Part shown: positions 4,891-60,854 of the stretch, piece after piece
How positions within the stretch are numbered: the stretch's first letter is position 1
Layout: each line of letters opens with the position of its first letter
IMG/VR virus record: IMGVR_UViG_3300034106_006471
Span: 1 to 64,000 of that record
Reading direction: 5' to 3' (one strand)
Source of the DNA: a virus
Length of the DNA stretch: 64,000 nucleotides
Translations under genes and position numbers: made by a program
The notes under the pieces: model-generated
What the model was told of the DNA's origin: nothing
Database searches by the model: none
The model's input: only the letters and a program-made list of their open reading frames with translations

Positions 4891-5072
4891 GCATGGCTAT
4901 GAAAGTTATTCCTACTAGAATAGATCCTATTAGCGGTCCACAAACTGCTGATAGTGCAGCATACGCCGTGTATAGAGGCAGATTATCTAAATTACGAAAC
5001 GATCCAGAACAAAATTGCGCATTGGCTATGACACAAGCTTTACAACAATTTATAAGTAGTAAGGAATGGTAA
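4887..5072 (+). pseudogene. 5'-truncated duplicate of 3444-3731 (could still be translated as a 61-aa protein)
   Basis: MSMAMKVIPTRIDPISGPQTADSAAY...MTQALQQFISSKEW matches the C-terminal 61 aa of 3444-3731. The first ~34 aa are absent from this ORF. Confidence 0.6.
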
Positions 5073-5073
5073 T

Positions 5074-25900: not shown

Positions 25901-27325
25901 CAGCCAAAATTTGATAATAGAGGAGCATCATACTTATTATTAGATTCTTGGAGAGGTATATTTTCAACTCTTTATAAACCAGACAATGCACAAAAAGAAT
26001 CATTATATTTCAAGTCATCTGGCATAGATTTAAGTAGTGCAGCAGCAGCAGCTAGCACAGCAGAATCTGGTTTATCAGACCTGATAAGAAGAGAAAAAAC
26101 TATTAGACAAGCTAAAAATAGTAATGTTAGCACAGCACTAACATCACAACAAAAAGAAAGCTTAGAATTTGAAGGAGGTAAATTATATACCATAGGAGCA
26201 GACGGTAAAAAAACAGAAACTAGTCCAGAAGCTAGAGAAAGTCCAACAACAGTAGCTCAAGTAGAAAAAATAGCACTAGTACCAGAAAATATTTTTCCTG
26301 AACAAAAAACTAGACAAAATTATTTAGATGTATTAATAGACTATTATAATAAAGCTAAACTTAGTGATGCAGCTAAGAGCGCGATGGCTCTAAAAACTTG
26401 GTACGGCGCTCAAGATAATTATTTAAATACAAGCTTATCGCCAGAACAGCTATCAAGTAATATACCAAAAGTTGAACAAGATATTACACTAAATGATAGA
26501 GATAGTTTTCAAAAATCTCACTTTTTATTAGCCGGGCAGAAGTACGGAGAACTACCAACAATACCTAAAATAGTTGAACTAATTAAGGTTAGAGCAGAAG
26601 AAAAAGCTAAAGAGCCAGAAAAGAAGGAGACAAGCGCTGGTGCAGACATTGCGAATAATTATGCTACTGGAGGTTTAGTATATGCTAGTAAGGGTAAACT
26701 AATTAATTTTCAACCACGAGGAACAGACACTGTTCCTGCCATGTTAACTCCTGGAGAATTTGTGATCAATAGAGAATCTACAAATAAATATAAGCCAGTT
26801 TTAGAGGCTATTAATAGTGGTAATTATAATCAAGGAGGTATAGTTAAATATTTGAATAATGGTGGAATAGTATTCCCTAATTATTATCAAGATGCTGGAA
26901 ATGTATCTGGTAGAAATGCCTCATTTGATTTTGCTGGCTTTATGCAAAATCTTACTGGAAAGCTTATTAGTACTATTCCGGAAGCTATAAAACAAGCTTT
27001 TAGTGGCTCCTCAACCACAACCCAAACAACCACAAATGGTGTATCATCTATTGATAGTGGAGCTTTGGATAAATTAAATCAGTTTACAAATAGACTAAAG
27101 AGTGTGGCTGATACTTTGGCCGGTTTACAAGCTATTCCTTCAGAAATTAATATTACAGGAAAACATGATCTCAATATTATTATCAATGGAGATAGCGCAT
27201 TGAATCAACTAAAGCCAGATTTACAAAATATAGTATTATCTAAAATGAGAGATGCTTTTAAATCATTAATAGATAAAAATACACAAAGTGGTGGATTACT
27301 TAAGAATATGCCGGATTTAATTTAA
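13913..27325 (+). CDS. Giant tape measure protein (~4470 aa) with embedded cargo modules
   Basis: TP901-type TMP core at ~14400-15150 (FDKAFIKLQQVT...LIDVAQTLAQAGLS...LMRQFG...VNAVAAGFAVEASDI). Long Ala/Gln/Glu helical tracts and repeated GG..G.D.VPAML.PGE.V motifs. ATG 13913 (AGGA upstream) is more likely than TTG 13874. Confidence 0.9.
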   Translation: MAAAFNLTAQLNLRGPNNVNKIVSDIRRQLGTVKGEIDFKINATAAKNVTQLNAAIKNLNSSLLETRSNAVAATTAISAFTNVASSINNTASKTATNISKASVAVNNLSSSSKKAKDDLSETRTEMEEFGRQSALAIRRFAAFTGVTSVIFGLSNAFKQAFGAFVEFDKAFIKLQQVTDKSGAELQSLSKEVTSLSVGLGIASSDLIDVAQTLAQAGLSAKDTEKALRALALSDLAPSFDSMNDTVEGSIALMRQFGISAGELEKVLGSVNAVAAGFAVEASDIIAAIQRTGGVFAAASKGVSEGSDALNEFIAVFTSVRATTRESAETIATGLRTIFTRIQREGTIEALREFGVTLTDAEGKFVGAYKAVQLLSEGLSRLDPRDIRFSQIVEELGGFRQIGKVIPLIQQFATAQEALKVAQAGQGSLASDAIKAQLSLANQISKVREEFLAFVRDIGGSDTFQTLAKTTLGFASGLIKVASALKGVLPVLAILGLGKAGSALTQFGSGFIGGLKKTKPDSAIQSQTGSSSVLGSRSASSSSRNQSIDFSQINNSLNSLGNTIDSLISSLNSLNGLSSELTNNTASLIANTASIESLTQAISSMNLGGSSTLSNGGKVLGFNKGGIVPGSGRGDKVPAMLEPGEVVMSNQAVQKYGRSNLNRMNRFAGGGKVIIDYPEEEAIRTQSIDSSLATAINSVGSQLYPKTKKIKGTTAQSMPNYAGVVGSIFEAGLARASEEPFKDDRKFFDFPKGIDNVKTYSSLTGITSDAKRNFDKNKPFYVNNILNKIGNTLGDNINSSAQNFGVAVMNKGEDTTFDWTADMVKNAQIDKKYLGGKIQKFMAGSPGGVRVGSGKGRGKTGAKGARDIIEPISSETYLRWAKGIYDEYDADPSLVMSIDELGARLPPEIALANRLLSQYALETGGAGLKVGQRFVRTPKELITEDLKPYLIPDPNDSSELGFYEDIIARIGKAKAKSAAATAKLGKQAALGAASSRIASYENAENAISEFKQSGILNIDPNIMSYISSSIANPTSLPLPKNIITSIQSKLTPTNLEAFKALTGKDRIPVKVQGQRTKLSEVFNTILETYGSDVSDLEIDSIIRGVGSKMMNKSTGGLIQKFMAGSTGSGGVQSQTDPIAQDILDKLQQVGGAGRARQLLTLPAIEKAIAKVQTSGKRPRSASGVFDKPFLTSSDATPFLSTLSSLADQAITLYSGTSAADFDLTPEQIAAARDVAIAGLRTDMKDLAPYYRLRKGFPLRVHTGIVSPDKYSIIDKLLEQQHMAQVEAARALAPNETISPLSKEDRQKFGEDNLGGYNLEALLALFGSGNGKKTTQDAIDFASGLTPLAASIFGVPAGIPTQAKLTVSSSNVTKALDGIIKTFALGGLAEATEEMSGLMKNLYGNRSSEDKPAQKKEKQFGKIALRNDGSTITATYFKQGAQALLSGSEMRSGQVTASKIDSNLYAVGLSAATKGYGPRLYDAVMEAATENGGMLTSDRNTVSGDAKKVWEYYFKNRGDVKKTPLKPSNWTKNQANIDPKLYGNEDTWPPATDPAWVLQSGYSKSPNLINDSNSVVRMDKQAQSSALTALEFFQSKTKLASGGSLKRTVPAMVSSGEAYIPPETAKKIGYSKLNRMNQADRNGMRGFSGGGISVFNGPGSGTSDSIGPVGLPEGSYVIRAKATKALGLNKGGIVGSSIKKFAGGGMSRSQIEERFQIDRNINIDQLKKAADQAGMSIVEFAKALINARDTAKQTALDQGKSLEQAAEAGRQAAAKFAGIELDPNVISPKQRKAIDRGVLTEKEAREANVGNLANQESSLIQLLGSSSGINRNIEENKQITSTSIDPRDILEMATQARSDAATKVYESSVRVGEENPINRTRAVMKAAGSSVTGDILRQTIGNKALTAADLNNALKGLASRRQELQSKKDTGDNSFDSSAMVELDMLNQLAPQIEAKLQDVLSSAIQNTDVAASAPPDKPKPVGSINTKDQAINAQNELDIRRKDFTAQTSDLQTRQREAASPIESAIIQKQIDSLATEFATYETEFNTAKTKYLEGFDNLTQTINDSRQAEVKAKEDRDKAYQELVTAAQNQTANWNNLSTEEQTAKVDELKRGSSGDAVRDAESRLAQASSVRTEAETKKAAEYGDATSRQDVEKSVDAGTTSGVLKAAETAAAARAAASIKVADAEKYMALMAQQSGKTLSQYTKQLKQDIGSTFMKLKEEVPKAVGAARANIIQSRDKLTGTDEKERDSAKEGIKSSLRSAIGSAEVSGVDTAKLDAMVNQLATKLQDASVSYEEAIASVDGLQQALTEANSAERLKARAVEEVAAASGVAKEKLGELGDEAIKAAQNMDSNKKFSDKLQKAALVVAALGSAAEFAIKELGGTESKGGAVASAVVGNATQTVGAGAALAKQALTSLPPPFNLFAAAAVAIGTAAVTIAGAFKDAHNAAREFDKALASKNVENSMDRVARAFDDFEKNIKNLNLLDTIQQELTFAGQNVAEGIRIDAEVPKAFWVNMFDALSGGSEAAQRSQILEKKGFGAYMESSAFGQNPLGMMANATLGGIPDAAYQAATGGESMFKGSMDQADINRNNIMASMAPQMAKEQSAQFKPVAEQTLRLFESKLKTGTSMEDVMKELKDSSGAPTQLAENIARSNTAVQEQILNIRASNSLGPEEKRVAEQNIIAEEAAYRTTLELNNALRQLEMDKLDKAIKGMTVSLERMFNQMDQAIGKVSFELDSLTRSAELSSLALSGQAQAGQVSLKSINVLQNQRAYSDTENNMAATQGAEMFGSQAKTIAPLLGLGNKLEDTVLSTINRVRKDSPDASNEKIATNIRFELNKSLNGLGLPSNITDKLSKEVGRAFSDITAKGDTELSFDEIVERVPGFAKAIDSARRAQEMANKALEFWQKNLNDYAQAMNTNVGLQIEANANFRKAASIQYQGQLELKKAFGKSISLDESRKAATMDIKSQTGGLTDPRDIGRNINRLEDTRRSQQALSDSAANRGSSGRNEFMVMQNNLGRTNLALRENYAALKQLADSGELAGAALSKINEIQQKRQAGANVIEKLATSNPEELNNFRNAMARMQNNMAGNVNAGSTSEQRSESLQAFNMIAPMLGDQQGAMRANMLEAMLKESNVGIDPMMQEVLDSLRDPEGDPQMAEAIATYREGVALQTEANRVLGELNQSIADNNAEVAAKKLATAIAGVKLSFESQTLSDINLGIQALVSIAKEKGVPGVAAGKSRGGVVYASAGELINFQPKGTDTVPAMLTPGEFVINRAATQKHLPLLKNINSGNYSSGGKVKYYEDGGLVGYWAERGGWYTNTNANKAKSSNRDNNLETTEKDFIQFKDINNVNENAFSPSTPLYKVPNAAYAVGRGENPIELGSIKSSFGVGNESFIQREGILLNNFTGTTPAGPNFRKTLKPFISIPDLDKISKEIDINSKKALSKNQTDVYLNLINKILDKWTNISDQKTKNLMPESPLTPPELTPKITSQKTLNDGDEYKVSGLSKIDNSSGFLVDNLSSVIPNRGGEVSNIVGWQKGYFSGTKKLASGLSNIDDPNWTLEDVIPFDPIFTRAKTYLYPKLATINQLKLDFENYKKNLKKYIGSGDSSFSESERLSQTKLDFTNLDALYKKRIFKTTITDSVGSVLHNNTITDWPVTLYNIPEDWFSNTVPKLKEAFPGGAGKSYSATADQLLSLLPYNIDTNKQVGGGAKSFAWTSAQTSRSPLLEKQLASAQASFSDNNAPPIKVVAQAKTDDPRFQFSYSEVEAPLFDPNSRNLGNDINKYIMISAAKGSEATNPFSLIPENKKIYAQNIDSVIEMLNNNMPNGEELQKRIDSGEDMKNLAFSFPLTGDNLGLSFIPSDALNLFKTTSIGQSLGDNINFLAPGSGTKPTLENFTLSGELTKAYTQARLDRIKKRGSEISQIKTEKAEGFDKIKDVKTDFEVEEVRIAIAKVAQRLALKEFQNANLPVSLKDPNSLADVGGLASGIFSIQPKFDNRGASYLLLDSWRGIFSTLYKPDNAQKESLYFKSSGIDLSSAAAAASTAESGLSDLIRREKTIRQAKNSNVSTALTSQQKESLEFEGGKLYTIGADGKKTETSPEARESPTTVAQVEKIALVPENIFPEQKTRQNYLDVLIDYYNKAKLSDAAKSAMALKTWYGAQDNYLNTSLSPEQLSSNIPKVEQDITLNDRDSFQKSHFLLAGQKYGELPTIPKIVELIKVRAEEKAKEPEKKETSAGADIANNYATGGLVYASKGKLINFQPRGTDTVPAMLTPGEFVINRESTNKYKPVLEAINSGNYNQGGIVKYLNNGGIVFPNYYQDAGNVSGRNASFDFAGFMQNLTGKLISTIPEAIKQAFSGSSTTTQTTTNGVSSIDSGALDKLNQFTNRLKSVADTLAGLQAIPSEINITGKHDLNIIINGDSALNQLKPDLQNIVLSKMRDAFKSLIDKNTQSGGLLKNMPDLI
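23645..26870 (+). repeat. Intragenic direct repeat of ~200 nt (about 23645-23845 and 26669-26870)
   Basis: GGVVYASAGELINFQPKGTDTVPAMLTPGEFVINR versus GGLVYASKGKLINFQPRGTDTVPAMLTPGEFVINR. Shared nucleotide tracts gtatatgctagt, aattaattttca, atgttaactcctggaga. Confidence 0.85.
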
Positions 27326-27348: not shown

Positions 27349-30300
27349 ATGAAAATATTTGATAATGTTGGTTGTGAATTTATTTATAACAGTAATAATA
27401 CTTTTACGTTATTAGGTCCTCTCTCAGGATATGCATCATTATCAATACAAGACTATGGATTTTCTATTCCTTATTTGGCTAGAAATATTGATGGTAAAAA
27501 TATAGAATATGAATTAGGAGTAGGATATTTAGATAAAGTTGATAATAAATTAGTTTTAAAAGATAAAAAAATATCAGTTTCTTCAAACAATAATCAACAC
27601 GTAGACTTTAGCAAAAATGGAAACAAACAATTCTACATTTTTGTACATAATGTAAACTTTAATAATGCTTTTAATAATGTATTTATCTGCAATAAAGATT
27701 TTAATATCGAACCGCGTAAAAGCGTTTATATAGTTGATGTTTCTAGCGGTTATGTTACAGCATCCCTTCCAGACCCAGTTCTATGTGAAGCTGTAGAGCT
27801 AGAATTTAAAACTTTAGGAGATTCTGGAGTTCTAAGCCTAAACTGCGAAGAGTTTAAACTAGCTATAGATAGTAATAAATATACAAAATTAGTATCTACG
27901 GGTAAAGATTGGATTGAATTAAAAGATAATAATACTAATAATATATCATCATTATCTTTATCAACTGATGACTCTTCTTTTCGGGTTTTGGGCGATCCAA
28001 CAGGAGCGGATAGATCTTTACAATTTAATAATAATGGTTCTTTTGATGATTCATCACTATATCAAGGGAATAATGACAAATTACTTTTCGGATCTAGTAC
28101 AGAATCAGCCGCTAAAAATATTATTCCTAGTAGTGGAGATCATGATTTAATATTAAATCAAACAAAAGACGGATCTAATTTTATAGTTTATGGCACCGGA
28201 AATGCTCCGGGCTATCCAGCTAAAAACTTATACTTTAGTTATGACGGAAGACTAGGCATTAATATGCCATCAGGAGTAAATACAGGATCTATAGTAAAAC
28301 CATCAACAATATTACACGTATTTAATACATTATGTAGAGAAGGTATTCGTTTAGAGAACAGAGCTAATTGTTATCCAGCTGATATTACTCTATATGATAA
28401 CCCCTTCACATCTCCTAGATCAAATGGTAGTAGTATAGCCAGAATAGTTTTTGCTGGAAAAGATAATGCTTCTAATAAAATAGATTTTGCTACCATAGAA
28501 ACTAAAATAAAATCAGCTTCATCTAAATTAGGACAGCTGGATATTTCTGTATCTAATGGCGCCTCATCTAAAACAACAATATCAACCAGCTCTGATAGAA
28601 CAAAAATAGAATCTAATAATGCATTAATAGACGTTAATACTTCATCAATTAGACTAAGTGGAACACACATCAGTATTACTGGAACCAATGTAGGAATAGC
28701 TGCCTTATCAAGCGTTAATTTAACAGGTACAGCTATTGTTAGCACAAGTCTTAGATTACCATATATATCGTCAGTAAATTCATTACTATCTATTGATTCT
28801 TCTAATAGAGTTATAGCAGCTACAGGTTTTAAAATCCCTGGATTAAGTGGCGGTTCCGAAGAAAGACTATTAAGCGTTAAAACAGATGGCACTGTTGTTG
28901 GACAAATACCAAAAGATGGAGTTTGGCCCTATGAGACAGGACAAAAAATAGGCGGCAAAGATGTGATTTGGGATAGGTATCCTTATAGAACCGCCCAGGT
29001 TTGCTTAAATAAAATAACACAAGAGATTGAAATAGAAAATACTCCTCTGGAGGAATTTAGTATTGGTGATCAAATAGCTATTTTAAATTTGTCAAACAAT
29101 ACTACTATTTATAGAAGAATTAGAGATTTAACAATCAATAATGATATTATCACTAGAATCTTAATAGATCAAGATGTTTTATTTACTGGATCAACCGTAA
29201 ATCTCAAAGTATATTCAGTATCCAAAGGTGGAATATTAACCAATACAATATATACCTCCGAAACCATATCAGACGCTACTGCTATAGTTTTAAGTTCTAG
29301 ACCACAAGCTAATACGGTATTTAATACTAAAAAGAAAAATATTGATTTTACAGTATTTGGTTCCGAAGATAAGCCTGCTTTTAATATATTAGCTAATGTA
29401 GGAAGTAATCAAAATATTACCGGAGCTTACTTTAAGTACGCCACTCATGTATCAGGCTCTCCACCTACCCAGTCCAAGATAGATTCGGATGGAAATGGCT
29501 CTATTAATAGTTCAGCTAATAATTCAGCTAATTTTGCCGATGCTGCTGATCCTGTTTGGTCTGGAAAAGTTACTGTGGTTGGGAATAATGGAAAGCCTAG
29601 TTATTATAAAACATTTGATCAAAATGGGAATGTTGCAGAGTGGGTGGAAGATGAGAATAAACAGTATTCATATGCTAGCTATCAATATGTTTGTGGCGGC
29701 TCTTGGAGAACAGCCAATAATAATAGTTTAAGAGGATATATTGCAACGCCAAGATATAGTGGTTTGGACGATATTGGATTTAGAATTTGTTCCAAAGCAG
29801 GATATTCTCACAATTTAGAAAATGCTTTATCAATAGATTTTGTTAGAGTTGATGATATTAATAATCCTTCCGATACTAGCCCTATATATGAAGAAGCTTG
29901 GACAAACAGATTTAATGATACTAACGACGACCCGTTACCTATTACAAAATCTGATCTGGGTGTAGTTTCATATCCATTCAGAATTAGCTCATATGAAGTT
30001 ACTAATGGTCAGTATTTAGCATTTTTAAACAGTGTGGCGACAGGAGTATCTTCAATTAGTGGATTATATAAGTCAAGTATGACTTCTAGTCCAGTTGGAG
30101 GAATATCAGTTTCTGGTAATGGAACATCAATACCGTTCACTTATTATGTTAAAAATAATATGGAGAGTATGCCTGTCGTATTCGTGGACTATGTAAGCTG
30201 TATCAGATATATAAATTGGTTAAGCAATGGAGCCCCAACCGGCAATAACATATTGCCTGGAATTACAGAATTTGGTGCATACAGCATACAGTCTGGTCCA

Positions 30301-33189
30301 GGAGGCACCGATCAAATTACTAAAAATAGAGATCAAAATTATTGGTTACCTAGCTTAAACGAATGGCATAAAGCAGCATATTACTATCCAGCTAATGAAG
30401 AAAACTCCTCCCCTTACTCTGCTATTACTATTAGAACAGATACTCCATTTGAGTACAAGCAAGCAGAGCCTTTTGTGTCAGGAACAGGACAAATAGCTTC
30501 TGTAACAATTAGTGGTTTACTTTATGCTGATTATTTAAAGATTAATCCTCTTGTTATAAAAGATTTAGATAGGAATTATACAACAGCTATTGATCCGACA
30601 GAAACGGTTGTTTCTGTAAAAGGCTTAACATATTTTATTAATCAGACAGGAGAAGATACTGGTAGATTGATCTTAAGGCCAGACAAAACAGTATTTACTC
30701 AACCAGTATTAGTAACTACAGGAGTAGCAAGCACAGTTGATAAATCTGCTGGGATACTAATAGAATCTAGTGGGATTAGTTATGTAGACAGTCAAGGCAA
30801 AAAAATTCCTGGAGGCTTATTTCCAGGGCCAAACGGTGGCTACTTATTTAAGGATCCCAATGGCAGTAATATAATATCTTCCTCTGGCAATTTGATATCT
30901 AAATCCGTTAGTGGAGAATATTTAGCATCTATAACCAGTATTCCTAATAATAGCATTGTTTATCAAGACAATAGATCCGTTTTAGTTGGAAGCTCTTGGT
31001 TTAGTGTTGGTAATCCTCCATCTAATTTAAAATTCGAAGGAGGAGATAAAGTTGTAACGATATCGTCGTCCTCAACATCAGAATCAACAACAGAACAATC
31101 TGAAGAAGATCAAAAACAAAAAGTATTATTATATACCGATAATTTAGCCATCGGCCCTGTTTTAGAGTCATATTCTGGCAGCTTATTAACTCATGGAGGT
31201 TCTAATATTGCTTATTGGCAACCAAATGAATTTTTAAGATTACCAGGAGCGATTTGGGAAAAATATCCTAGACGAGCAATAGAGTTTAGTCTAGATCCTG
31301 AATCAGATTATACCCAAATTGATTCTTTTAGATTTGTTGATATAGAACCATCAGATGGAGGAACAGGACCAGTAACTGTTGGTGAACTTAAAAATGAATT
31401 TGCTATTAATGAGACTATAGCTATATATAATCAAAAGAGAAATGTAATATATGTTAAAATATCTAATAAAGGATTAGTAGATTCTAGAGGTAGAGTAGTA
31501 AATAGTGGATTATTTACTGATGAAAGTAATTTGGTAATGAATGTTTGTCCACCAATACCAGCAGATTTTGCAAGACAATCTAAATTAGAATTGGCACCAG
31601 ATAATACAAATGATGGTAGACTAATAGCGTATGCTTTTTCTGTTCAAAAGGGTGGTTATTTGGATATGCTCATGGAGCCACAGGCTACTGGAGTTTTTTC
31701 TTGCGAAGGACTAATTACATCTCCCACAACCACATCTGAATACAAATTTAAACCAGGAACATCTAATACTATTAGTTTGCGTCCAGAGATCCACACAGCC
31801 TTCAATAAGCTTGCTGAGAATATAGACTTTGTTGTGTATGGACATAGACCAACTTTATTTACCAGATATGAAAATGACTGGTTTGATAAAGATAAGTCTG
31901 GATTGCCCACAGGATTGACTCCAGCATTTAGAATTAATACAAAAATAAATAACAGCGTAATTGGATCGTTAGAGAGTGGCGTTCTGGTTCAAACCATAGG
32001 AGAAACAAGCTCTATAGCAACTGGTATACTTCCTGATTTTAATCCTAAAATAACAATAAATACTAAAGAACCATATAGAATAGCCACACTAAATAATATT
32101 AAACAGGGTATTTTGCTACCTAATAGTAATCCAGCCTTAAATTTGGAACTTGAAAAAACGTATGGAACTACAATTCCTATAACCGGTGTTGCAATATCAG
32201 GTACGAAAGATTTATCAAATTATGCTGATTTGACTATCGGAGGAACAACATATACTGATCAATTAATTACAAAAGATGTAGTATTAGGTCCATTATGGAA
32301 GGGAGTGATTCCTATACCATATGAATTATCATTAACTCAAAAAGTTTATGCTCCTAATTATCCTTTGACAATTAATAATCTTGGTCAAATTGTTTCACTA
32401 ATACCTCCTCCAGCACCAACAGCGCCATCTGCTCCCTTAGACTTAGTAGCAAATCCAAAAAATAATTCAGTAATACTAACATGGAATCCCCCTGAGAATG
32501 ACGGTGGAGAGCCAATTATTGGTTATGTGGTTGAATTCTCTATTGACGATGGAAATGTTTGGATAATTGCTGATCAAATAGACGAACAAACATTATTGCC
32601 CAATAATCCTGATAAAAATACTATAAGAATATTAAATAGTCCAACTGTTACTAACAATATAGGCTATATATTTAGAGTAAGATCTTATAATAGTATTGGT
32701 TTTGGTGCATACTCTCAAATTTCTACTAGCGTTACCCCATCATCTTCTTTATCCCCAGCTTCTGTTAATAATTTAAGAATCTCTCAGGGAGAAGATTTTG
32801 ACGGCATAAGAAATTCTACTAATATAGTATTGTCTTGGGACCCAGTTGTTTCATTACCAGATGACACAACTCTTCAAAATTATATTGTAGAATATTGGAT
32901 CTATAATACATTAGATAATAAAGATCTAAAATTAGCAACCTGGACAACAGCAGCCAATAGCCCTGTTAGTCCCACAAGCACATCTATATCAATTGGAGGA
33001 ATAAATACTACATCATTATACTACTTTAGCGTATCTACTCTAGCTTCTAATGGTAGTTCTAGCAGTAGATCATTATATGCTAGTTTAGGTAGCGATCCGG
33101 ATCCAAGACCAATAACTAATCGTCGAATTAGAAATAATCCTAATAGCTACAACTTCGGATCTATTATATTCACAGGATCATGCTCATAA
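27349..33189 (+). CDS. Large tail/fibre protein with a permuted FGE-sulfatase-like domain and two C-terminal fibronectin type III domains
   Basis: FDQNGNVAEW, GGSW, IGFRI, YEVTNGQYLAFLN, WLPSLNEWHKAAY. PSAPLDLVANPKNNSVILTWNPPENDGGEPIIGYVVE...YIFRVRSYNSIGFG is FN3. Confidence 0.75.
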   Translation: MKIFDNVGCEFIYNSNNTFTLLGPLSGYASLSIQDYGFSIPYLARNIDGKNIEYELGVGYLDKVDNKLVLKDKKISVSSNNNQHVDFSKNGNKQFYIFVHNVNFNNAFNNVFICNKDFNIEPRKSVYIVDVSSGYVTASLPDPVLCEAVELEFKTLGDSGVLSLNCEEFKLAIDSNKYTKLVSTGKDWIELKDNNTNNISSLSLSTDDSSFRVLGDPTGADRSLQFNNNGSFDDSSLYQGNNDKLLFGSSTESAAKNIIPSSGDHDLILNQTKDGSNFIVYGTGNAPGYPAKNLYFSYDGRLGINMPSGVNTGSIVKPSTILHVFNTLCREGIRLENRANCYPADITLYDNPFTSPRSNGSSIARIVFAGKDNASNKIDFATIETKIKSASSKLGQLDISVSNGASSKTTISTSSDRTKIESNNALIDVNTSSIRLSGTHISITGTNVGIAALSSVNLTGTAIVSTSLRLPYISSVNSLLSIDSSNRVIAATGFKIPGLSGGSEERLLSVKTDGTVVGQIPKDGVWPYETGQKIGGKDVIWDRYPYRTAQVCLNKITQEIEIENTPLEEFSIGDQIAILNLSNNTTIYRRIRDLTINNDIITRILIDQDVLFTGSTVNLKVYSVSKGGILTNTIYTSETISDATAIVLSSRPQANTVFNTKKKNIDFTVFGSEDKPAFNILANVGSNQNITGAYFKYATHVSGSPPTQSKIDSDGNGSINSSANNSANFADAADPVWSGKVTVVGNNGKPSYYKTFDQNGNVAEWVEDENKQYSYASYQYVCGGSWRTANNNSLRGYIATPRYSGLDDIGFRICSKAGYSHNLENALSIDFVRVDDINNPSDTSPIYEEAWTNRFNDTNDDPLPITKSDLGVVSYPFRISSYEVTNGQYLAFLNSVATGVSSISGLYKSSMTSSPVGGISVSGNGTSIPFTYYVKNNMESMPVVFVDYVSCIRYINWLSNGAPTGNNILPGITEFGAYSIQSGPGGTDQITKNRDQNYWLPSLNEWHKAAYYYPANEENSSPYSAITIRTDTPFEYKQAEPFVSGTGQIASVTISGLLYADYLKINPLVIKDLDRNYTTAIDPTETVVSVKGLTYFINQTGEDTGRLILRPDKTVFTQPVLVTTGVASTVDKSAGILIESSGISYVDSQGKKIPGGLFPGPNGGYLFKDPNGSNIISSSGNLISKSVSGEYLASITSIPNNSIVYQDNRSVLVGSSWFSVGNPPSNLKFEGGDKVVTISSSSTSESTTEQSEEDQKQKVLLYTDNLAIGPVLESYSGSLLTHGGSNIAYWQPNEFLRLPGAIWEKYPRRAIEFSLDPESDYTQIDSFRFVDIEPSDGGTGPVTVGELKNEFAINETIAIYNQKRNVIYVKISNKGLVDSRGRVVNSGLFTDESNLVMNVCPPIPADFARQSKLELAPDNTNDGRLIAYAFSVQKGGYLDMLMEPQATGVFSCEGLITSPTTTSEYKFKPGTSNTISLRPEIHTAFNKLAENIDFVVYGHRPTLFTRYENDWFDKDKSGLPTGLTPAFRINTKINNSVIGSLESGVLVQTIGETSSIATGILPDFNPKITINTKEPYRIATLNNIKQGILLPNSNPALNLELEKTYGTTIPITGVAISGTKDLSNYADLTIGGTTYTDQLITKDVVLGPLWKGVIPIPYELSLTQKVYAPNYPLTINNLGQIVSLIPPPAPTAPSAPLDLVANPKNNSVILTWNPPENDGGEPIIGYVVEFSIDDGNVWIIADQIDEQTLLPNNPDKNTIRILNSPTVTNNIGYIFRVRSYNSIGFGAYSQISTSVTPSSSLSPASVNNLRISQGEDFDGIRNSTNIVLSWDPVVSLPDDTTLQNYIVEYWIYNTLDNKDLKLATWTTAANSPVSPTSTSISIGGINTTSLYYFSVSTLASNGSSSSRSLYASLGSDPDPRPITNRRIRNNPNSYNFGSIIFTGSCS

Positions 33190-33201
33190 AAGGAGAAGTA
33201 A

Positions 33202-33753
33202 ATGTCAGCACCTCTTATTCTTAAACACTGTTACGAAAATTTAAACGCCCCCAGCCCAGATCAATTAGAGGTTGGCGAACTAGTTATTAATTCTAGAACA
33301 GGGAAATTATATACTAGGTTAGCATTAGATAATAAAAATCCACCAACCCCAGGACCTATTATAGAATTTATTGGTAAGCAAGTTTGCTATGCAAAAATAC
33401 CGTCAATTACATTTGATAGCGTATCCGATTTTTGTTGCAATGAGGATATTCTTAAAGTTAAGGTTATAGATTTACTTAAAGATACTGAATATAGATTCGA
33501 ACTTGAAGATATTAGTGGAAATAATATTGACTATACTATTAATAGCCCCTTATACACTGATTATACTGTTAGTGATTTAGGAAACTCTTCTGTCGAGTTA
33601 AGAGAAGCCGTAATACCTATTACTTTAAAAATATTGGGATCAAAAAATATTACAATACTTAAATTTAAAATTTTAGGCGGCAGTGTTGATATTAATAGAG
33701 AATTAACTAGTAGAACTATAACTATTTCTTGCAATAATTGTGATGGACTATAA
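33202..33753 (+). CDS. Tail protein with an Mtd_N/hyaluronidase-N-like N-terminal motif
   Basis: LILKH...APSPDQLEVGELVINSRTGKLY matches the L..GEl.in..tgkly fibre N-terminal motif. AGGAG RBS. Confidence 0.6.
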   Translation: MSAPLILKHCYENLNAPSPDQLEVGELVINSRTGKLYTRLALDNKNPPTPGPIIEFIGKQVCYAKIPSITFDSVSDFCCNEDILKVKVIDLLKDTEYRFELEDISGNNIDYTINSPLYTDYTVSDLGNSSVELREAVIPITLKILGSKNITILKFKILGGSVDINRELTSRTITISCNNCDGL

Positions 33754-36700
33754 AATGTTTATTCAGGCAAAAAGATATGGAGTATTAGAAGCTGCTTGTG
33801 GAATACAAGTATTTTTTGAAAAAATAATACCAAGACCTACTAAAATAGCAAATATTATTAATGCTACTAGAGTTAATAGCGTATCAACTATAACTTTGAA
33901 TAGACTAATAGAGTCTGTAAGTAAGAATCAGAGAATAACAATAGCACAATCGACTAATGCTCCATCTGACATTATTCCTATACCAGATTCATTTATTGGG
34001 GATTTTACCACTACATCTTCTATAGAGGTAGTAGAGTCTAATAATCTATCATTAACATTTGATCAAAACCTACCTAATACTCAAGGACTATCAGGACAGG
34101 TTATGACAGGAGATCTGTACAAGCAGTCAAACATAGCACCATCTGATCAGTATTTAATACAATTTTTTATAGAAACAAAAACACCTTCTAGCGCTGAAGC
34201 CACAGTAAATCCTTCGTCTTATATTGTTGGAGGTTATGAGAATTTTATTCCCTCAACGGTTCTTAATGTAGTATCAAGATACAGTAAATCTGTAAAAATT
34301 TTATTAAAAATGGTTATCAAAGACTATAAAAGTAATACTCTTCTTAGAACGGAATATCAAGAAATTATAGTATCAGATGCTTCTTCCAAACCATGTGAAA
34401 TTATATACGAAAAACCTATTGATACTAATTTTTATGAATTAAATAAAAAAAATAATTGGAGTTATTTTCATGATGGATATTTGTTAGCAGAATTTATTCC
34501 AGATAAGTATCATAAAGATATTATTATTAAGCTTATTAAAAAAAATAATCGGTTATTACCTAATAGAAGCGACAAAGATAGAATTCGTATTATTGCTGAT
34601 CCTATAAAACTACAAGATAAACAGACTACAATAGATAAAATTAGAAATGCAGTATTAGATATGTATGGTACTATTAGTAATAGTATTGCTATAGCTAATT
34701 TAGGAAATAAATCATACGATATTATCGTAGAAAATAAATTGGCTAAGCCTGAAGACTTTCAAGATCTTATAGTAGATATTGTGCCCCCAGTAACAGGAAC
34801 AAACATTAAATTTTCTGAAGTAGCAACCGCAGAAAACTATACTCAAGATTTAGCTAGTATTCCTAAGATTAGTATATTAAAATGGAATAATTATGGTATT
34901 GGAGAATTACATTATAATAGTAGAATATATGATAATGATAGTATATTAGTTAATATTTCTGGAGATATTACTGCAAGTTTATCCGGAACTATATCTGATA
35001 TTACTAATGGAGTTAATTATTTATCTACATTATATATTCAACCTACTCCTACTCCATCTAATACTACTACTCCTACTGTTACTCCAACCATAACAGCTAC
35101 ATCGACAACTACTCCAACAATTACTCCAACGATCACTCCTACAGAAACAATAACCCCTAGTCCAACAGAAACGATTACTCCTACTCCTACTGAAACGATA
35201 ACTCCGACTCCAACAGAAACTATAACACCAACTCCTACCTCAACAGAATTACCTATTAGTATTAATGTTGTTGTTCATGACGAAAGTAGAGATGGACCGT
35301 TATCAAACTCACCTAATTCGCCTACTTCTGTTTTTCTTATTAGTGGAAATAGTAGAGTAGTAGGATCTGTTGGTGGAAATAGTGATTATTTTAATTTTCA
35401 AATAGATTCAAATCATATATTAAATTCTATTTCCTTAGTAAATTATGTATCTCTTGACAGTATTGCTTGGATAGGTATTCAATCAGGACTATCATGGACG
35501 GCCGGAGATAATCCTAATTTAATGTTGGATCAACAACATTTTGGATCAGATGATATTAATAATAATATTTTAACCAACGCTACTCCGTTAAGCTCTGGAG
35601 TTTATGTTATAAGAATTCAACAACTAGGCTCAGAGGCTTTGTATAATCTTAATTTTGAATTAGTAGCTGCTCCAACTTCTACTCCAACAATCACTCCAAC
35701 CATTACCTCTACTCCCACGACAACATTAACAGTTACCCCAACTAATACAATTAGTCCAAGTTTAACTCCAACAAATACTATTACATCAACACAAACCCCA
35801 ACCAACACACCTACTTTAACAACAACTCCCACCCCTACTACTAGCTCAATGATTAATGTATTGCCTACTGTTACTCCAACTATTACCCCAACCTCTAGCT
35901 TAACAAATACGCCTACGATTACTCTAACAACCACTCCAACCATAACTCCTAGTGTTAGCTCAATAATTTTTAGAACCAGTAATACTGCTAATTATAATAA
36001 TTGTGCTAGTTGGGATAATTTAAGTGGTAATGTAACGTCGGTTGGAACTAATGGAAAAGGATCGTCGTATGGAATTCATGATATGAATGGTAATGTTTGG
36101 GAATGGACAGAAAGATTGTGGAATGCTGGAGCGCGAGGAGTTAAGGGAGGTAGCTGGAATAGTATAGATAACAGATTATTAAGAACATATGAAGGTATTC
36201 AACAGCCAACAACAGTATTAAACCAGATAGGTTTTAGAGTAGGTTCATTTGTATTAAATAATTTAAATAATTTTATTGTAATTTCAGATAGTGAAAATAT
36301 TAATGATGATTCTGGAATAGGTAATGTTGATTATATATATAGTATTGGTAGATTTTTAGTAACAAATAGCGAATATGCTGAATTTTTAAATAATATAGCA
36401 GCACTAGATACTTTTGAAGTATATGATATTAATATGAATGGTAATAGAGGAGGCATAATAAGGTCAGGAATTTCGGGATCATACATTTATACAGTCAAAA
36501 ATAATTATCAAAATAAACCGGTTGTTTTTGTAAATTGGTATAATGCTGCAAGATATTGCAATTGGTTACACAATAGCAAGCCAACAGGAAATCAAAATAA
36601 TAGTACTACAGAGAACGGAGCTTATCAGTTGACAGGAAATACAAATAGTCCAAATAGAACAATAAATGCTCAATTTTTTATACCAAATGGAAACGAGTGG

Positions 36701-36817
36701 CAAAAAGCTGCATTCTATAAAGCAGGCGGAACTAGTTCAGGATATTGGAATTATGCTACAGCTAGTGATTCTTTACCCACTTGTGTTTTATCAAATAGCT
36801 TAGGTAACGGAATTTAA
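33740..36817 (+). CDS. Multidomain adhesin-like virion protein (RND DN-like segment, PT linkers, PPC-like domain, permuted FGE-like domain)
   Basis: Motifs are visible in the translation: IRIIADPIKL..., (TP)n tracts, HDESRDGPLSN...DYFNF...YVIRIQQ, DMNGNVWEW...GGSW...IGFRV, VTNSEYAEFLN. Confidence 0.7.
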   Translation: MMDYKMFIQAKRYGVLEAACGIQVFFEKIIPRPTKIANIINATRVNSVSTITLNRLIESVSKNQRITIAQSTNAPSDIIPIPDSFIGDFTTTSSIEVVESNNLSLTFDQNLPNTQGLSGQVMTGDLYKQSNIAPSDQYLIQFFIETKTPSSAEATVNPSSYIVGGYENFIPSTVLNVVSRYSKSVKILLKMVIKDYKSNTLLRTEYQEIIVSDASSKPCEIIYEKPIDTNFYELNKKNNWSYFHDGYLLAEFIPDKYHKDIIIKLIKKNNRLLPNRSDKDRIRIIADPIKLQDKQTTIDKIRNAVLDMYGTISNSIAIANLGNKSYDIIVENKLAKPEDFQDLIVDIVPPVTGTNIKFSEVATAENYTQDLASIPKISILKWNNYGIGELHYNSRIYDNDSILVNISGDITASLSGTISDITNGVNYLSTLYIQPTPTPSNTTTPTVTPTITATSTTTPTITPTITPTETITPSPTETITPTPTETITPTPTETITPTPTSTELPISINVVVHDESRDGPLSNSPNSPTSVFLISGNSRVVGSVGGNSDYFNFQIDSNHILNSISLVNYVSLDSIAWIGIQSGLSWTAGDNPNLMLDQQHFGSDDINNNILTNATPLSSGVYVIRIQQLGSEALYNLNFELVAAPTSTPTITPTITSTPTTTLTVTPTNTISPSLTPTNTITSTQTPTNTPTLTTTPTPTTSSMINVLPTVTPTITPTSSLTNTPTITLTTTPTITPSVSSIIFRTSNTANYNNCASWDNLSGNVTSVGTNGKGSSYGIHDMNGNVWEWTERLWNAGARGVKGGSWNSIDNRLLRTYEGIQQPTTVLNQIGFRVGSFVLNNLNNFIVISDSENINDDSGIGNVDYIYSIGRFLVTNSEYAEFLNNIAALDTFEVYDINMNGNRGGIIRSGISGSYIYTVKNNYQNKPVVFVNWYNAARYCNWLHNSKPTGNQNNSTTENGAYQLTGNTNSPNRTINAQFFIPNGNEWQKAAFYKAGGTSSGYWNYATASDSLPTCVLSNSLGNGI
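35040..35955 (+). repeat. Two Thr/Pro-rich low-complexity linkers (about 35040-35245 and 35665-35955)
   Basis: TPTPTETI-type 8-aa units and TPTITPT tracts flank the PPC-like domain. Confidence 0.85.
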
Positions 36818-36819
36818 TT

Positions 36820-39800
36820 ATGCAATATAATAACTATGCTCATATAGAATTAAAAATTATTTCTAAAAATAAAAATACTATCGGAAATAGTGCAAATTAT
36901 AAAAATTTAGCAAAATGGAATGATTCGTATGAAGGGAATGTTACTTCTGTAACATCTAATGGAGATCCTAGCTATTATGGATTATATGATATTAGTGGTC
37001 AGGTATATGAATGGACAGAAACTAGTAGCACAGAACATAAAGAATTAAAAATATGCAGAGGAGGATGCTACGCTGACACTAATCCAGCTTCTTTAAGTAA
37101 AAACAATAGAAAGAAATTTCATTATGACAGTATGTTAAATGAAGGATTTTTTGGTTTTAGAGTAGCATCAATCAATACTTCTGATATTAATATATTAAAT
37201 TATTTGGTACCAGTAGCTGATGAACAAAATATTCCTGATAATTGTGCAAATAATTCTATTGGTCAAGTTAATTATACTTATGGAATAAGTAGTCGTTTAA
37301 TTGATAATTCTAGATATTGCGAATTTCTAAATTTTGTAGATCCAGAAGGATCCAATAACTATCAGTTATATGATGAAAGAATGGGATCAAGTCCAATAGG
37401 AGGAATTTTATATATAAAATGTAATGAGATCGGGAATAAGTATATTGTGAAAAGTATGATGACAAATAAACCAGTAACTTTTATTAAATGGAAAATGGCA
37501 GCAAGATATATTAACTGGTTAAACAATGATTTATCCTCTATAAATCTTGATAATGGAACATATAATTTATTATCAGACAATATAGTGCGTAGTCCTGATG
37601 CTAAATATTTTTTACCAAGTGAAGATGAATGGTACAAAGCGGCCTACTATGATCCTAATAAGAATGGACCAAATAAGCCAGGATATTGGAATTATGGAAC
37701 AAAAAGTGATAATGACCCTTTAGCTATTCTGTGTAATGACTACGGAGATCCTACAGGGATAGAAGGTCTTCAGGACTCTGTTAAAACTTTTCCTATATTT
37801 GTTAATAAAAATTATGATATATCTAAAGATAATCTATGTCCCAGTATAAGTATTTCTGGACAAAATATTATACCATCAGGACATATCCATACTGTAAATA
37901 GTACAATTACAAATTTAAAGTATGGTATGGCTTACTCTTATAATTTTGCCTCGTCTTTTGCTAATTGGCCATGCAAAATTACCCCATTATCAGGAATTTT
38001 TACAGCATATGGGGACACTCAAGAGATAAATGCTATTTTAGAATTTTGTCCTAAAAATTATGATGATATAACTATTTGTAATAGTAATTTAGCCTACCAT
38101 AATGTTAATGAAAAAACCAATAATAGTTTAATTAATTTAGAACTTAAAGTTGTTAGTAATAATTGTATTGATGGATCTAGGTCCAACCTATTGATAGAGT
38201 CTAGTGGATTACCATCTATTGTTTCTAGGAATAAATATCTTAATATTAAATTTTTAGATTCTGAAGATAATACAATTACAGTTTCAGGTAACTTATGCTG
38301 TGAACCAATACCTATAGTAGTTAGTATGAGTGGACATAAACCAGGAGATCTATATACTTATGAATTATCATCATCCTCTCCTAGTGTTAAATTAATTCCT
38401 CATACAGGAATAGTTTCTTTTGGTAGCGGAATTGGTAAAATAACATCTTTTGCGATAGGTTTAAATAATAACGTATCGGTACTCTCGGCCAGAGTAAATA
38501 AGAAGAACAGTGCGGATATAGCTAGTTCTGATCAGGTATTATTACAATGCATAAGAGATTGCGCCAAGAGTTGCGATAATCATGCTAATTTTGACAATAA
38601 AGCTAAGTGGGGTATTTGCGTCCCAGATTGTTCTAATGTTTATAATTCTCCAGTAAGAAATTCTGCTAGTGTTACTACTGTAGGGACTAACGGAGGACCT
38701 AGTGAGTATGGAACATACGATATGGATGGTAATGTTTGGGAGGCGGTACATTCAGCAAATCTTAACGCTAATCCTGCTTCTTTTAAACTAAGAGGAGGTC
38801 ATTTTGGCTCATCTCAAATAGGGAAAAATGTTAGTTCAGTATACAACAACCTAAGTGCTGATAATATTAGTTTTAGAGTAGGATCATATACCAATCCTTA
38901 TAATTATGTTAATATGGTTCATGTTGCAGATATAGGAAGTTTACCATCTGGAAATAAACCTGATTCCAATGGTTTTGGTAGTGTTCCATATACATTTAAG
39001 ATGAGCAAGTACCCTGTAACAAATGATGATTATGTATCATTTCTTAATAATGTGGCATCAACAGGAATAACTTTAACTCAATCAAATTATGTTTATGATA
39101 GCGCTATGAGCGGTTGTTATGGAGGTATAAATAGAGTTCCAAATGGGAATAATTTTTCATACTCTGCTCAACCATGTATGGGTAATAAGTCTGTGAGATT
39201 TGTTAATTCATATGGTATTCTTAAATATATTAATTGGTTGAATAATAATAAACCCAACGGATGGAATACTTCCAATAGTGGAACATATTTACTTAATTCT
39301 GATGGAGTAATAACTTCTGGAAACAGATCTACTTGTGCCGAATATTTCTTACCTAGCGAAAATGAATGGTATAAAACAGCTTATTATAAGGGAGGAAATA
39401 CTAATAATACTAATGCTAATTATTGGACTTATGCAACAAGATCTAATGTGGATCCAGAATCTGTAAGAGCTTCTGACTGCGGAGATGGTATCAAAGAAGA
39501 TTGTGAACCCGAACCCATTCCAACAACTACTGTTACTCCAACGAAAACAGAAACCCCAACAGTTACTCCAACAAGAACAGCAACCCCAACAGTTACTCCA
39601 ACAAGAACAGCAACCCCAACAGTTACTCCAACAGTAACGACAACCTCAACAGTTACTCCCACAGTAACGACAACCTCAACAGTTACTCCCACAGTAACGA
39701 CAACCTCAACAGTTACTCCCACAGTAACGACAACCTCAACAGTTACTCCCACAGTAACGACAACCTCAACAGTTACTCCCACAGTAACGACAACCTCAAC

Positions 39801-40566
39801 AGTTACTCCAACAGTAACGACAACTCCAACCAATACTGTTACTCCAACTAAAACGCTAAATTGTAATAATTGTAGTAATAATCTTATATTGAATGGAGAT
39901 TTTGAACAAGGATCTCTAGGAGGTCCTACGGGTATAGGAGGAACAGTAACTAGTTGGTCCCTAAGCGATTATTCTGTAATTCGCTCATTATCCTATAGTC
40001 TTTCACAAGAACCATTAAATAGATGGATAGCCTTGGGCAAGTGTGAATTATTGGTTGTAGCTGATCAAAATCTGGTCCAAATACGAAAGGGATCTATTCA
40101 ACAATCGATAAGTGGTCTTACTACAGGACAATCGTATATTATTAATTTTAAATTAACAGGGTTTCTTTATAGTAACCCAGAACTAAGTGGACCTTATTCA
40201 TCACCACCATCATGTTTACTATCGGTAATAGGAAATAACACAGTAAGTCAAAATTATACTGTTAATTCACCTTGTGGAGTAAGCACGCCGCAATCATATC
40301 AGAGTATGGGTTGGCTTGATAAAAGTTATGTCTTTACAGCAGACAGGTCATTCATAACAATCAAATTTGAAAACTCGAACTCGTGTTCTACTAATTGTGA
40401 TTGTTGCATGCCCGCTATAGACTGTGTTTGTATAACACAAATAACACCAACTGCTACTCCAACTAATAGTGAAACTCCTACTACTACTCCAACTAATACT
40501 CTTACTCCATTTTTAACGCCATCAATTACTCCAACAAATAGTTTGACTCCCACAAAAATAAATTAA
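36820..40566 (+). CDS. Multidomain adhesin-like virion protein (two permuted FGE-like domains, PT repeat, DUF642/choice-of-anchor-C-like domain)
   Basis: YDISGQVYEW and YDMDGNVWE, RGG, GFRV/SFRV, LPSEDEWYKAAYY and LPSENEWYKTAYY. NLILNGDFEQG...IQQSISGLTTGQSYIINF...YVFTA...PAIDCV is a galactose-binding-like domain. Confidence 0.7.
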   Translation: MQYNNYAHIELKIISKNKNTIGNSANYKNLAKWNDSYEGNVTSVTSNGDPSYYGLYDISGQVYEWTETSSTEHKELKICRGGCYADTNPASLSKNNRKKFHYDSMLNEGFFGFRVASINTSDINILNYLVPVADEQNIPDNCANNSIGQVNYTYGISSRLIDNSRYCEFLNFVDPEGSNNYQLYDERMGSSPIGGILYIKCNEIGNKYIVKSMMTNKPVTFIKWKMAARYINWLNNDLSSINLDNGTYNLLSDNIVRSPDAKYFLPSEDEWYKAAYYDPNKNGPNKPGYWNYGTKSDNDPLAILCNDYGDPTGIEGLQDSVKTFPIFVNKNYDISKDNLCPSISISGQNIIPSGHIHTVNSTITNLKYGMAYSYNFASSFANWPCKITPLSGIFTAYGDTQEINAILEFCPKNYDDITICNSNLAYHNVNEKTNNSLINLELKVVSNNCIDGSRSNLLIESSGLPSIVSRNKYLNIKFLDSEDNTITVSGNLCCEPIPIVVSMSGHKPGDLYTYELSSSSPSVKLIPHTGIVSFGSGIGKITSFAIGLNNNVSVLSARVNKKNSADIASSDQVLLQCIRDCAKSCDNHANFDNKAKWGICVPDCSNVYNSPVRNSASVTTVGTNGGPSEYGTYDMDGNVWEAVHSANLNANPASFKLRGGHFGSSQIGKNVSSVYNNLSADNISFRVGSYTNPYNYVNMVHVADIGSLPSGNKPDSNGFGSVPYTFKMSKYPVTNDDYVSFLNNVASTGITLTQSNYVYDSAMSGCYGGINRVPNGNNFSYSAQPCMGNKSVRFVNSYGILKYINWLNNNKPNGWNTSNSGTYLLNSDGVITSGNRSTCAEYFLPSENEWYKTAYYKGGNTNNTNANYWTYATRSNVDPESVRASDCGDGIKEDCEPEPIPTTTVTPTKTETPTVTPTRTATPTVTPTRTATPTVTPTVTTTSTVTPTVTTTSTVTPTVTTTSTVTPTVTTTSTVTPTVTTTSTVTPTVTTTSTVTPTVTTTPTNTVTPTKTLNCNNCSNNLILNGDFEQGSLGGPTGIGGTVTSWSLSDYSVIRSLSYSLSQEPLNRWIALGKCELLVVADQNLVQIRKGSIQQSISGLTTGQSYIINFKLTGFLYSNPELSGPYSSPPSCLLSVIGNNTVSQNYTVNSPCGVSTPQSYQSMGWLDKSYVFTADRSFITIKFENSNSCSTNCDCCMPAIDCVCITQITPTATPTNSETPTTTPTNTLTPFLTPSITPTNSLTPTKIN
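39541..39830 (+). repeat. 30-nt tandem repeat array encoding TVTTTSTVTP-type units
   Basis: acagtaacgacaacctcaacagttactcc(c/a) occurs six times at 39631-39810. It is preceded by two acaagaacagcaaccccaacagttactcca units and one variant. Confidence 0.95.
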
Positions 40567-55996: not shown

Positions 55997-56332
55997 TTAC
56001 TCATCTTTCTTTTGATATTTATGCCATCCCTTATTTGGTAGATAATTTCCGTTATCATCTTTTCTCTTTGGAAATAATGTTCCACCTTTTTTATGCTGTC
56101 CAAATGCTAAAACAGCACCGCAATCCATACATCTAAGCTCATAGTAATCATTGCCTTCTACGCTTCTAACAATAAATCTTAAATTTGTGCTTTTGCACAA
56201 ACCGCATTTTTCTTCTCCAAAAATTTCTTGAATAAGAGCAAGTTCTTTAAAAATCTCTTTTTGTCCGCTTCCTTCAAGTTCGAAACTCAATTTATCATTA
56301 GCTTTGTATGTTACTTTCATAATTATTTCCAT
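55997..56332 (-). CDS. Zn-ribbon protein of unknown function
   Basis: CGLC...YYELRCMDCGA. The start may be the ATG at 56320. Confidence 0.6.
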   Translation of the reverse strand: MEIIMKVTYKANDKLSFELEGSGQKEIFKELALIQEIFGEEKCGLCKSTNLRFIVRSVEGNDYYELRCMDCGAVLAFGQHKKGGTLFPKRKDDNGNYLPNKGWHKYQKKDE

Positions 56333-57060: not shown

Positions 57061-57062
57061 AA

Positions 57063-60427: not shown

Positions 60428-60428
60428 A

Positions 60429-60845: not shown

Positions 60846-60854
60846 ATTATCTTT

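Follow-up and report, generated by a model that had tools for sequence, protein, structure and literature searches.

Does a stretch of virus DNA encode a well-known protein domain whose two halves have exchanged places? The stretch analyzed here (the window) is the first 64 kb of the 88,924-base IMG/VR record IMGVR_UViG_3300034106_006471, rated 62% complete by CheckV with a full genome estimated at ~140 kb. [quoted passage not shown] A reading of the sequence alone had placed four copies in the window, all of them beginning with the C-half. In our view each copy, a unit ~285 residues long, is likely to be a binding domain of the FGE type, C-type-lectin-like and non-catalytic, with a chain that has been circularly permuted.

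An FGE-sulfatase domain with exchanged halves

Each reported copy was divided in two, and the resulting pieces were scanned separately against Pfam-A. All eight pieces matched PF03781 (FGE-sulfatase, profile length 255) at E-values of 1.8e-10 to 6.3e-4, six of them above the gathering score of 23.3 bits and two under it (21.0 and 19.9 bits); the three whole proteins that carry the copies, P0001, P0002, and P0003, scored 50.0, 69.4, and 89.2 bits, above the same cut-off. The scan bore out the prediction of two partial, swapped matches per copy. A six-frame PF03781 search of the whole record returned 10 matches, which are the two halves of five copies, all swapped: profile positions 142–254 precede 35–136, and colinearity with the model (N-half before C-half) fails in five of five. 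The count of four holds for the window, but the record contains a fifth copy outside it, on the minus strand at record positions 87908–88762, which shares 70% of its protein sequence with the P0002 copy and, over 891 bases, 74% of its DNA sequence.

Separate models of the N-half and the C-half place the four window units, all on the plus strand, close to the positions first reported for them. Unit 1 (P0001 residues 718–819 and 826–1040) spans 29500–30468, with its C-half at 29500–29805 and its N-half at 29824–30468 (profile positions 161–253, then 35–123). Unit 2, in P0002, spans 35960–36814 (C-half 35960–36262, N-half 36257–36814; profile 153–253, then 37–124). P0003 carries unit 3 at 36865–37755 (C-half 36865–37182, N-half 37189–37755; profile 145–254, then 74–128) and unit 4 at 38560–39492 (C-half 38560–38898, N-half 38899–39492; profile 162–191, then 36–124). 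Because the window copies were included in the training alignment of the half-models, these coordinates are not independent evidence. When aligned, the window copies are 39–42% identical to the first copy, and the motifs listed by the sequence-only reading (N.ANY, GNVWEW, GGSW, GFRV, V.D..N..D, VTN..Y..FLN, and EW.KAAY) can be seen both in that alignment and in the translations.

The order of the motifs shows how a unit is laid out. It opens with the usual C-terminal third (N.ANY, GNVWEW, RGGSW, a hypervariable stretch, and GFRV, the canonical last strand), passes through a loop of 10–17 residues into the canonical first strand, FVxVxD, continues with the usual N-terminal two-thirds (VTN.EY.EFLN, KPV..V.W..ARYCNWLHN, EW.KAAYY, and GYW.YAT), and ends at the point from which a chain of canonical order continues to N.ANY. 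A short linker between the halves had been anticipated and is present, but at about 10–17 residues from GFRV to FVxV rather than the 8–15 proposed.

Canonical relatives provide the most direct view of the rearrangement. When the P0002 unit was compared by BLASTP with 15 relatives, seven aligned end to end (query 1–285) at 45–61% identity, and the other eight, canonical-order proteins of 326–378 amino acids, aligned as two swapped, abutting blocks; some of these eight are named as SUMF1/EgtB/PvdO family proteins of Pirellulales or Phycisphaeraceae. In one of them, a 358-amino-acid Pirellulales protein (P0202), subject residues 34–217 correspond to query 104–284 (43% identity, E 4e-44) and subject residues 223–314 to query 6–94 (46% identity, E 2e-19). 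Since the two blocks abut (subject 217, then 223), the permuted unit contains the whole canonical domain exactly once. Each half is present once, in swapped order and with full coverage, and the boundaries fall at the new termini, the cut point being the loop between the GYW.YAT and N.ANY motifs. Canonical homologues from Planctomycetota and Verrucomicrobiota, 41–50% identical to the unit, relate to it by a clean permutation, in agreement with the earlier claim, and on these alignments the unit is a circular permutant of the canonical FGE-sulfatase domain.

An apparent C-then-N order might also be read from a canonical tandem array taken out of phase, or be produced by frameshifts or assembly errors, in which case there would be no true permutation. 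Every window copy, however, is a lone C-then-N unit, with no N-half ahead of it and no C-half behind it. Unit 3 begins 15 residues after the first Met of P0003, and the P0002 unit fills the stretch between a Pro/Thr linker and the stop codon; such flanks, which are Pro/Thr linkers or an end of the reading frame, rule out a mis-phased array in these proteins. As for assembly error, at least half of the sampled words of this DNA are present in 11 lake-water metagenome runs, two of which are possible sources of the assembly and nine of which cannot be.

Permuted units in viruses, canonical units in bacteria

A HMMER search with one unit over 1.84 billion cluster representatives gave 11,440 matches at E ≤ 1e-3 and 1,760 at E ≤ 1e-30, with the top matches spanning the whole unit. 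At the stricter threshold more than 1,700 clusters (50% identity) are related to that one unit, a count that includes close canonical relatives. The half-models, which were built from alignment A2, were used to type 269 proteins. Permuted order was found as CN in 92, CNCN in 26, and CNCNCN in 5; canonical order as NC in 47, NCNC in 49, and NCNCNC in 8; the remaining 42 had a mixed or partial architecture. Many proteins carry a single unit at their extreme N- or C-terminus. The NCNC and NCNCNC proteins demonstrate that canonical arrays with short linkers exist, and a C-then-N query does align across their junctions, both of which favor the out-of-phase explanation.

That explanation is opposed by the virus contigs. 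In IMG/VR, 271 stretches encode a relative, and the best 80 of them (79 loci) were typed: their 85 open reading frames (ORFs) comprise 69 CN, 11 CNCN, 3 NCNCN, 1 NCN, and 1 CNNC, such that 80 of 85 have the permuted order. Four complete genomes of related phages, 210–244 kb in size, carry one to four copies each, and all of these copies are permuted as well. With the same arrangement on these other virus contigs and phage genomes, we find it scarcely credible that no true permutation exists. The viral setting of the permuted units was judged from the IMG/VR loci and the four complete phage records rather than from the 164 units of the protein collections, and by these counts the permuted form appears to be common in uncultured phages. 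The single CNNC case, at ORF residues 669–1247 of locus L135 (IMGVR_UViG_3300027586_001442), consists of a permuted unit followed directly by a canonical one, a mirror arrangement that may record a rearrangement between the two topologies. Among 50,697 GenBank phage records there was no match to a 13-kb block of this record (megablast) or to the unit (tblastn).

A search of prokaryotes, with one genome per species, gave a different picture. At least 579 stretches are relatives, and the best 80 loci, which come mostly from Planctomycetota and Verrucomicrobiota metagenome-assembled genomes, contain 97 ORFs typed as 83 NC, 6 NCNC, 2 NCNCNC, and 6 partial, with none permuted. The median GC content of these bacterial loci is 0.605, vs. 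0.359 for the viral loci. We also took even samples of 401 genomes each from Planctomycetota and Verrucomicrobiota (802 in total, of unknown completeness). In the first phylum sample 24 of 401 genomes matched at E ≤ 1e-20, and all 33 matches covered the N-half only; in the second, 18 of 401 genomes matched, 28 of 31 matches covered the N-half only, and the three longer ones were typed NC, NCNC, and NNCNC. Neither the best 80 prokaryote loci (of at least 579) nor the 802 sampled genomes showed a unit in permuted order.

The FGE-sulfatase surface proteins of Planctomycetota and Verrucomicrobiota are members of the subfamily to which the phage units belong. Identity reaches 41–47% over the N-half and 31–50% over the C-half, the motifs are the same, the C-x4-C pair discussed below is lacking, the same segment is hypervariable, and the same inter-half residue pairs co-vary. 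These proteins are annotated as “SUMF1/EgtB/PvdO family nonheme iron enzyme,” and some have PEP-CTERM or dockerin sequences. They differ in that the N-half precedes the C-half, in their high GC content, in the rarity of Cys at the head and tail columns, and in occurring as single domains or tandem arrays in bacterial genomes.

Tandem arrays of the canonical domain, which occur in bacteria and in the protein collections, offer a route to the permuted form. In NCNC arrays the median excess of the C-to-N gap is 3 residues, vs. 0 in permuted units. As the C-to-N linkers of such arrays are about as short as the permuted linker, loss of the two outer halves would yield a permuted unit, and the permuted form probably arose in this way from tandem canonical arrays of the type found in the Planctomycetota–Verrucomicrobiota–Chlamydiota (PVC) bacteria.

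Packing, active site, and variable segment

Passages of PMC5006420 describe the segments at both ends, N- and C-terminal, of the CLec fold as an antiparallel beta1/beta5 pair, in keeping with the earlier argument that adjacent termini make the permutation structurally plausible. With the old termini paired in this manner, the loop from GFRV to FVxV is able to form a hairpin, and in the 92 single-unit proteins this linker has zero median excess over the model ends. In the proposed arrangement the joined old termini would form that hairpin and the new termini would derive from the cut loop, linked by cysteines in about 40% of the family.

The cysteines in question lie at unit position 15 (in N..C.xW, at the new N-terminus) and position 275 (in P.C, at the new C-terminus) and co-vary. 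Both are present in the P0002 copy and in the fifth copy. Among 177 permuted units de-duplicated at 70% identity, 72 have both cysteines, 2 + 2 have one only, and 101 have neither; the corresponding numbers for 104 single-unit proteins are 55, 1, and 48. On a tree built without these two columns, each column changes state at least 32 times, and wherever a well-supported branch gives a phylogenetically independent pair, the two columns change together, in seven of seven cases (sign test p ~0.016). Canonical units have Cys at both columns in only 3 of 166 cases. The coupled pair suggests a disulfide that would act as a staple across the cut loop.

Contacts between the halves were assessed by mean-field direct coupling analysis (DCA), run separately on two sets with no unit in common, one of 227 permuted units (effective number 192) and one of 162 canonical units (effective number 143). 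Five of the top 25 inter-half pairs were common to both topologies, where 0.03 were expected, and 14 of the top 100, where 0.53 were expected; after removal of pairs near either junction the overlaps were nearly unchanged, at 5 and 13. The strongest coupling in the permuted set was the Cys pair itself. Since inter-half couplings are shared, the halves appear to touch through the same residue pairs in both topologies, which is consistent with their packing as a single domain; the favorable geometry and the co-varying cysteines lend indirect support to the same view. Feature-based neighbors in the ESM Atlas were all PF03781 clusters from bacteria.

Such couplings could also arise from an intermolecular domain swap, with the C-half of one chain or unit paired with the N-half of another in a fiber oligomer. 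Tail fibers are commonly oligomeric, and covariation does not tell an intrachain contact from one that joins two copies of the same chain. We nevertheless regard a swap as improbable, in view of the short inter-half link and its zero excess, the many single-unit proteins in which the unit sits at an extreme terminus, and the ability of a short loop to bridge old termini that form a beta1/beta5 pair. Packing of both halves within one chain is the arrangement we prefer; as a fold of the FGE/CLec type, it would be one globular domain with strands beta1 and beta5 paired and a beta2-beta3-beta4-beta4' sheet.

Names in the source databases point instead to enzymes. The permuted proteins are called either [quoted passage not shown] or “hypothetical protein,” and there is weak NCBIfam similarity to PvdO, EgtB, and GldK, all far under the cut-offs. 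On these grounds the units might be FGE-, EgtB-, or PvdO-type enzymes, carried in the virion or made during infection. The active-site cysteines of human FGE, Cys336 and Cys341, are five residues apart according to a passage of PMC4505483, and a C-x4-C pair was accordingly sought between the EW and FR motifs, after 88 permuted and 46 canonical units without both literal motifs had been dropped. None of the units of the subfamily had it, whether permuted (0 of 171) or canonical (0 of 147), a result that concerns the FGE-type site, EgtB-type iron ligands not having been checked; within this record it is absent from four of the five copies, those in which the segment can be delimited. The catalytic motif is thus missing, as the sequence-only reading had noted, and its lack fits ligand binding rather than catalysis.

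The closest solved structure by sequence, SUMF2/pFGE (1Y4J), is likewise non-catalytic. It is a eukaryotic protein of the endoplasmic reticulum and a paralogue of human FGE, shares the motifs of the phage unit, and differs from it in not being a repeated phage module and in its canonical order (query 186–247 corresponds to chain 116–180, and query 32–93 to chain 194–263). The next PDB matches were TvpA, PorK, and FGEs, and all of the solved chains have canonical order. PorK/GldK, lipoproteins of type IX secretion (9OTS, 9MZU), resemble the units in putting the FGE-sulfatase fold to non-enzymatic, structural use and in giving weak profile matches; they differ in their canonical order, in being components of a ring complex, and in their remoteness (12–31 bits against a cut-off of 350). 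Since the units, moreover, recur as linker-borne modules in the products of genes that follow the tape-measure gene, an enzymatic role seems very unlikely. The label “formylglycine-generating enzyme” is probably wrong for these tail proteins, because the module is repeated and lacks the cysteines.

Use of the same fold for ligand binding is known from TvpA (2Y3C), which the family profile matches at E 1.6e-6, and from Mtd, the receptor-binding protein of a Bordetella phage. In both, according to parts of PMC5006420, the variable surface lies between GNVWEW-like and GFR-like motifs. Variability in the present family peaks at the corresponding place, unit columns 51–90 between GNVxEW and GFR (3.1–3.4 bits in most 10-column bins, vs. 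~0.9–1.9 bits in conserved blocks elsewhere); the passages of PMC5006420 in question place the variable residues of TvpA and Mtd on the strands to which these columns correspond. The expectation that the permutation had moved this segment to the domain interior was correct, as it occupies approximately residues 50–90 in a unit of 285, and no other stretch varies as much across the family. TvpA and Mtd, by contrast, have their variable region at the C-terminus or close to it, where a reverse transcriptase rewrites it, whereas the segment in the phage unit is near the unit start.

The correspondence with the TvpA/Mtd variable region raises the possibility that the units are targets of a diversity-generating retroelement (DGR) whose variable region was internalized by the permutation, and in a record that is only partly complete the other elements of such a system could lie beyond its ends. 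No reverse transcriptase (PF00078) was found in the record (62% complete) or in any of the four complete related phage genomes, and self-BLASTN revealed no short template-like repeat of any unit, the only repeat of a unit being the whole-unit paralogue pair described above. A DGR at work on these units is therefore most improbable. Diversity would instead stem from paralogy among the five copies, which are 39–70% identical.

Taken with the neighboring fn3 and DUF642 domains, the Pro/Thr linkers, and the position after the tape-measure gene, these features indicate a binding role, and it is rather probable that the units are receptor- or glycan-binding heads. They would be shown on three giant proteins for adsorption, with specificity located in the hypervariable stretch between GNVWEW and GFRV.

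Several observations weigh against this reading of the units as permuted binding domains. The comparison with bacteria covers the best 80 of at least 579 stretches, and the viral record is itself partial. The Cys pair is absent from three of the five copies in this phage. Folding as one domain rests on covariation and homology, and as the DCA sets are small and have no contact map as a check, the couplings are support and not proof. P0001 and the two giant ORFs downstream have no PHROG matches, and P0002 and P0003 match only phrog_18508 (labeled as a kinase, and matched in swapped order, as with Pfam) and phrog_15511 (of unknown function). No tail-fiber or receptor-binding PHROG was among the matches of P0001–P0003 and the downstream ORFs, for which reason their tail-tip or fiber role is deduced from gene position. 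In trees of the reordered units, finally, topology changed state repeatedly: 10 times among 364 rows (FastTree) and five times among 126 cleaned rows. Before the trees were built we discarded units in which under 75% of a half-model was covered, rows that had over 60 or over 40 gaps, and sequences redundant at 70 or 52% identity; the clean sets exclude proteins that are not purely (CN)n or (NC)n.

An approximately unbiased (AU) test, applied to a 47-row subset that was picked after viewing the tree and purposely made to contain the exceptions, failed to reject a single permuted clade (log-likelihood difference 2.7, p-AU 0.47), so that a single origin is possible but not demonstrated. With all of this in mind, we lean somewhat toward a scenario in which the permuted domain is a phage invention, perhaps of one origin, derived from PVC-type arrays and later equipped with a disulfide staple; the units would form a large family, so far without a model, of receptor-binding heads in large aquatic phages, and their specificity would owe its diversity to paralogy and the shuffling of modules, not to retroelements.

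The swapped-half FGE domain is a rearranged form of a well-known domain for which we found neither a database model nor a description. No Pfam or NCBIfam model and no PDB chain has the swapped order, and NCBIfam gave no match near any cut-off. The searchable full-text literature, which excludes subscription journals and supplementary files, held no description of a permuted FGE or CLec domain; in passages of PMC8195603, PMC7824862, and PMC3521204 the word “permuted” means something else. The remark in the sequence-only reading that it knew of no described permuted family agrees with these searches, and to that reading the present analysis adds the Cys-pair and DCA evidence, the position beside the tape measure, and the set of five copies. 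Domain pipelines currently return two partial FGE-sulfatase matches and the enzyme label, and a model made for this family would change the annotation of phage proteins in large number. In this family the CLec/FGE fold has a naturally occurring, abundant circular permutant, accompanied by close canonical relatives and likely tandem-array intermediates, and with its apparently compensating Cys pair across the new termini it offers a clean example for work on how a permutation originates and is stabilized. It also supplies candidate receptor-binding heads for uncultured freshwater phages and a contrast to the DGR-driven diversification of the same fold.

The tail gene block and the rest of the record

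The tape-measure gene (13874–27325, plus strand, 4483 amino acids) marks the start of the tail-tip/fiber block. It matches phrog_28, phrog_4211, and phrog_167 at E-values of 7e-22 to 1.5e-20, with the matches confined to residues 55–830. Its length is very great for a genome estimated at ~140 kb, and it contains an internal repeat (23642–23830 and 26669–26856, 77% identical). The ORFs that follow are co-directional with intergenic gaps of at most 145 bases, and this gene order suggests that P0001–P0003 are virion proteins of the tail tip or fibers.

P0001 (27349–33189, plus strand, 1946 amino acids) matches PF03781 in two stretches and contains, in addition to unit 1, an fn3 domain (PF00041, E 1.3e-13, two stretches, the best at residues 1694–1793, 32428–32727). 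A small plus-strand ORF (33202–33753) separates it from P0002 (33740–36817, plus strand, 1025 amino acids), which has an N-terminal part, two Pro/Thr-rich linkers, and unit 2 as its C-terminal end. Between these linkers, at residues ~500–670 (35240–35750), is a domain of ~170 residues with no Pfam match; phrog_15511 covers residues 429–510, upstream of this domain and barely overlapping it. P0003 (36820–40566, plus strand, 1248 amino acids; PF03781 in four stretches) contains, besides units 3 and 4, a linker of Thr/Pro repeats and, near its C-terminus at residues 1081–1205, a DUF642 module (40060–40434; PF04862, E 5.7e-8, 33.1 bits against a cut-off of 27). The linker follows unit 4 at 39521–39854 as a tandem Thr/Pro-rich repeat (TVTPTVTTTS-like), its DNA repeats being 72–85% identical, and similar Pro/Thr linkers flank the P0002 unit. 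Three further plus-strand ORFs lie downstream of P0003 (40711–42570, 42612–48320, and 48322–55647), the last two of them giant. In the PHROG search nine of 10 upstream, intervening, and downstream ORFs had no match and the remaining one matched a function-unknown family; five further ORFs tested also had no match.

Beyond 64 kb the minus strand encodes a primase, a DnaB-like helicase, a UvsX-like recombinase, and both ribonucleotide reductase subunits, as well as a DNA polymerase, a block of genes that indicates a genuine tailed-phage genome. The DNA polymerase is split over three minus-strand ORFs (record positions 64867–70558, outside the window), which match consecutive parts of phrog_405 (positions 43–606, 622–794, and 793–1072), and an endonuclease gene (phrog_4645) lies between the last two of them. 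The record ends, outside the window, in a direct repeat of 54 bases with exactly matching copies (88781–88834 and 88871–88924), which is either real or an assembly-edge effect.

Near the start of the window, two adjacent genes (3733–4890 and 5074–6243) are recent tandem duplicates, with DNA that is 83–85% identical over ~360–370 bases at either end (the repeated region spanning 3533–6218), and neither has a Pfam or PHROG match. At the other end, a run of minus-strand ORFs (56323–63999), most of them without family matches, includes genes for a DUF559-like protein and for a group-1 glycosyltransferase (62692–63978; PF00534, E 5e-11).

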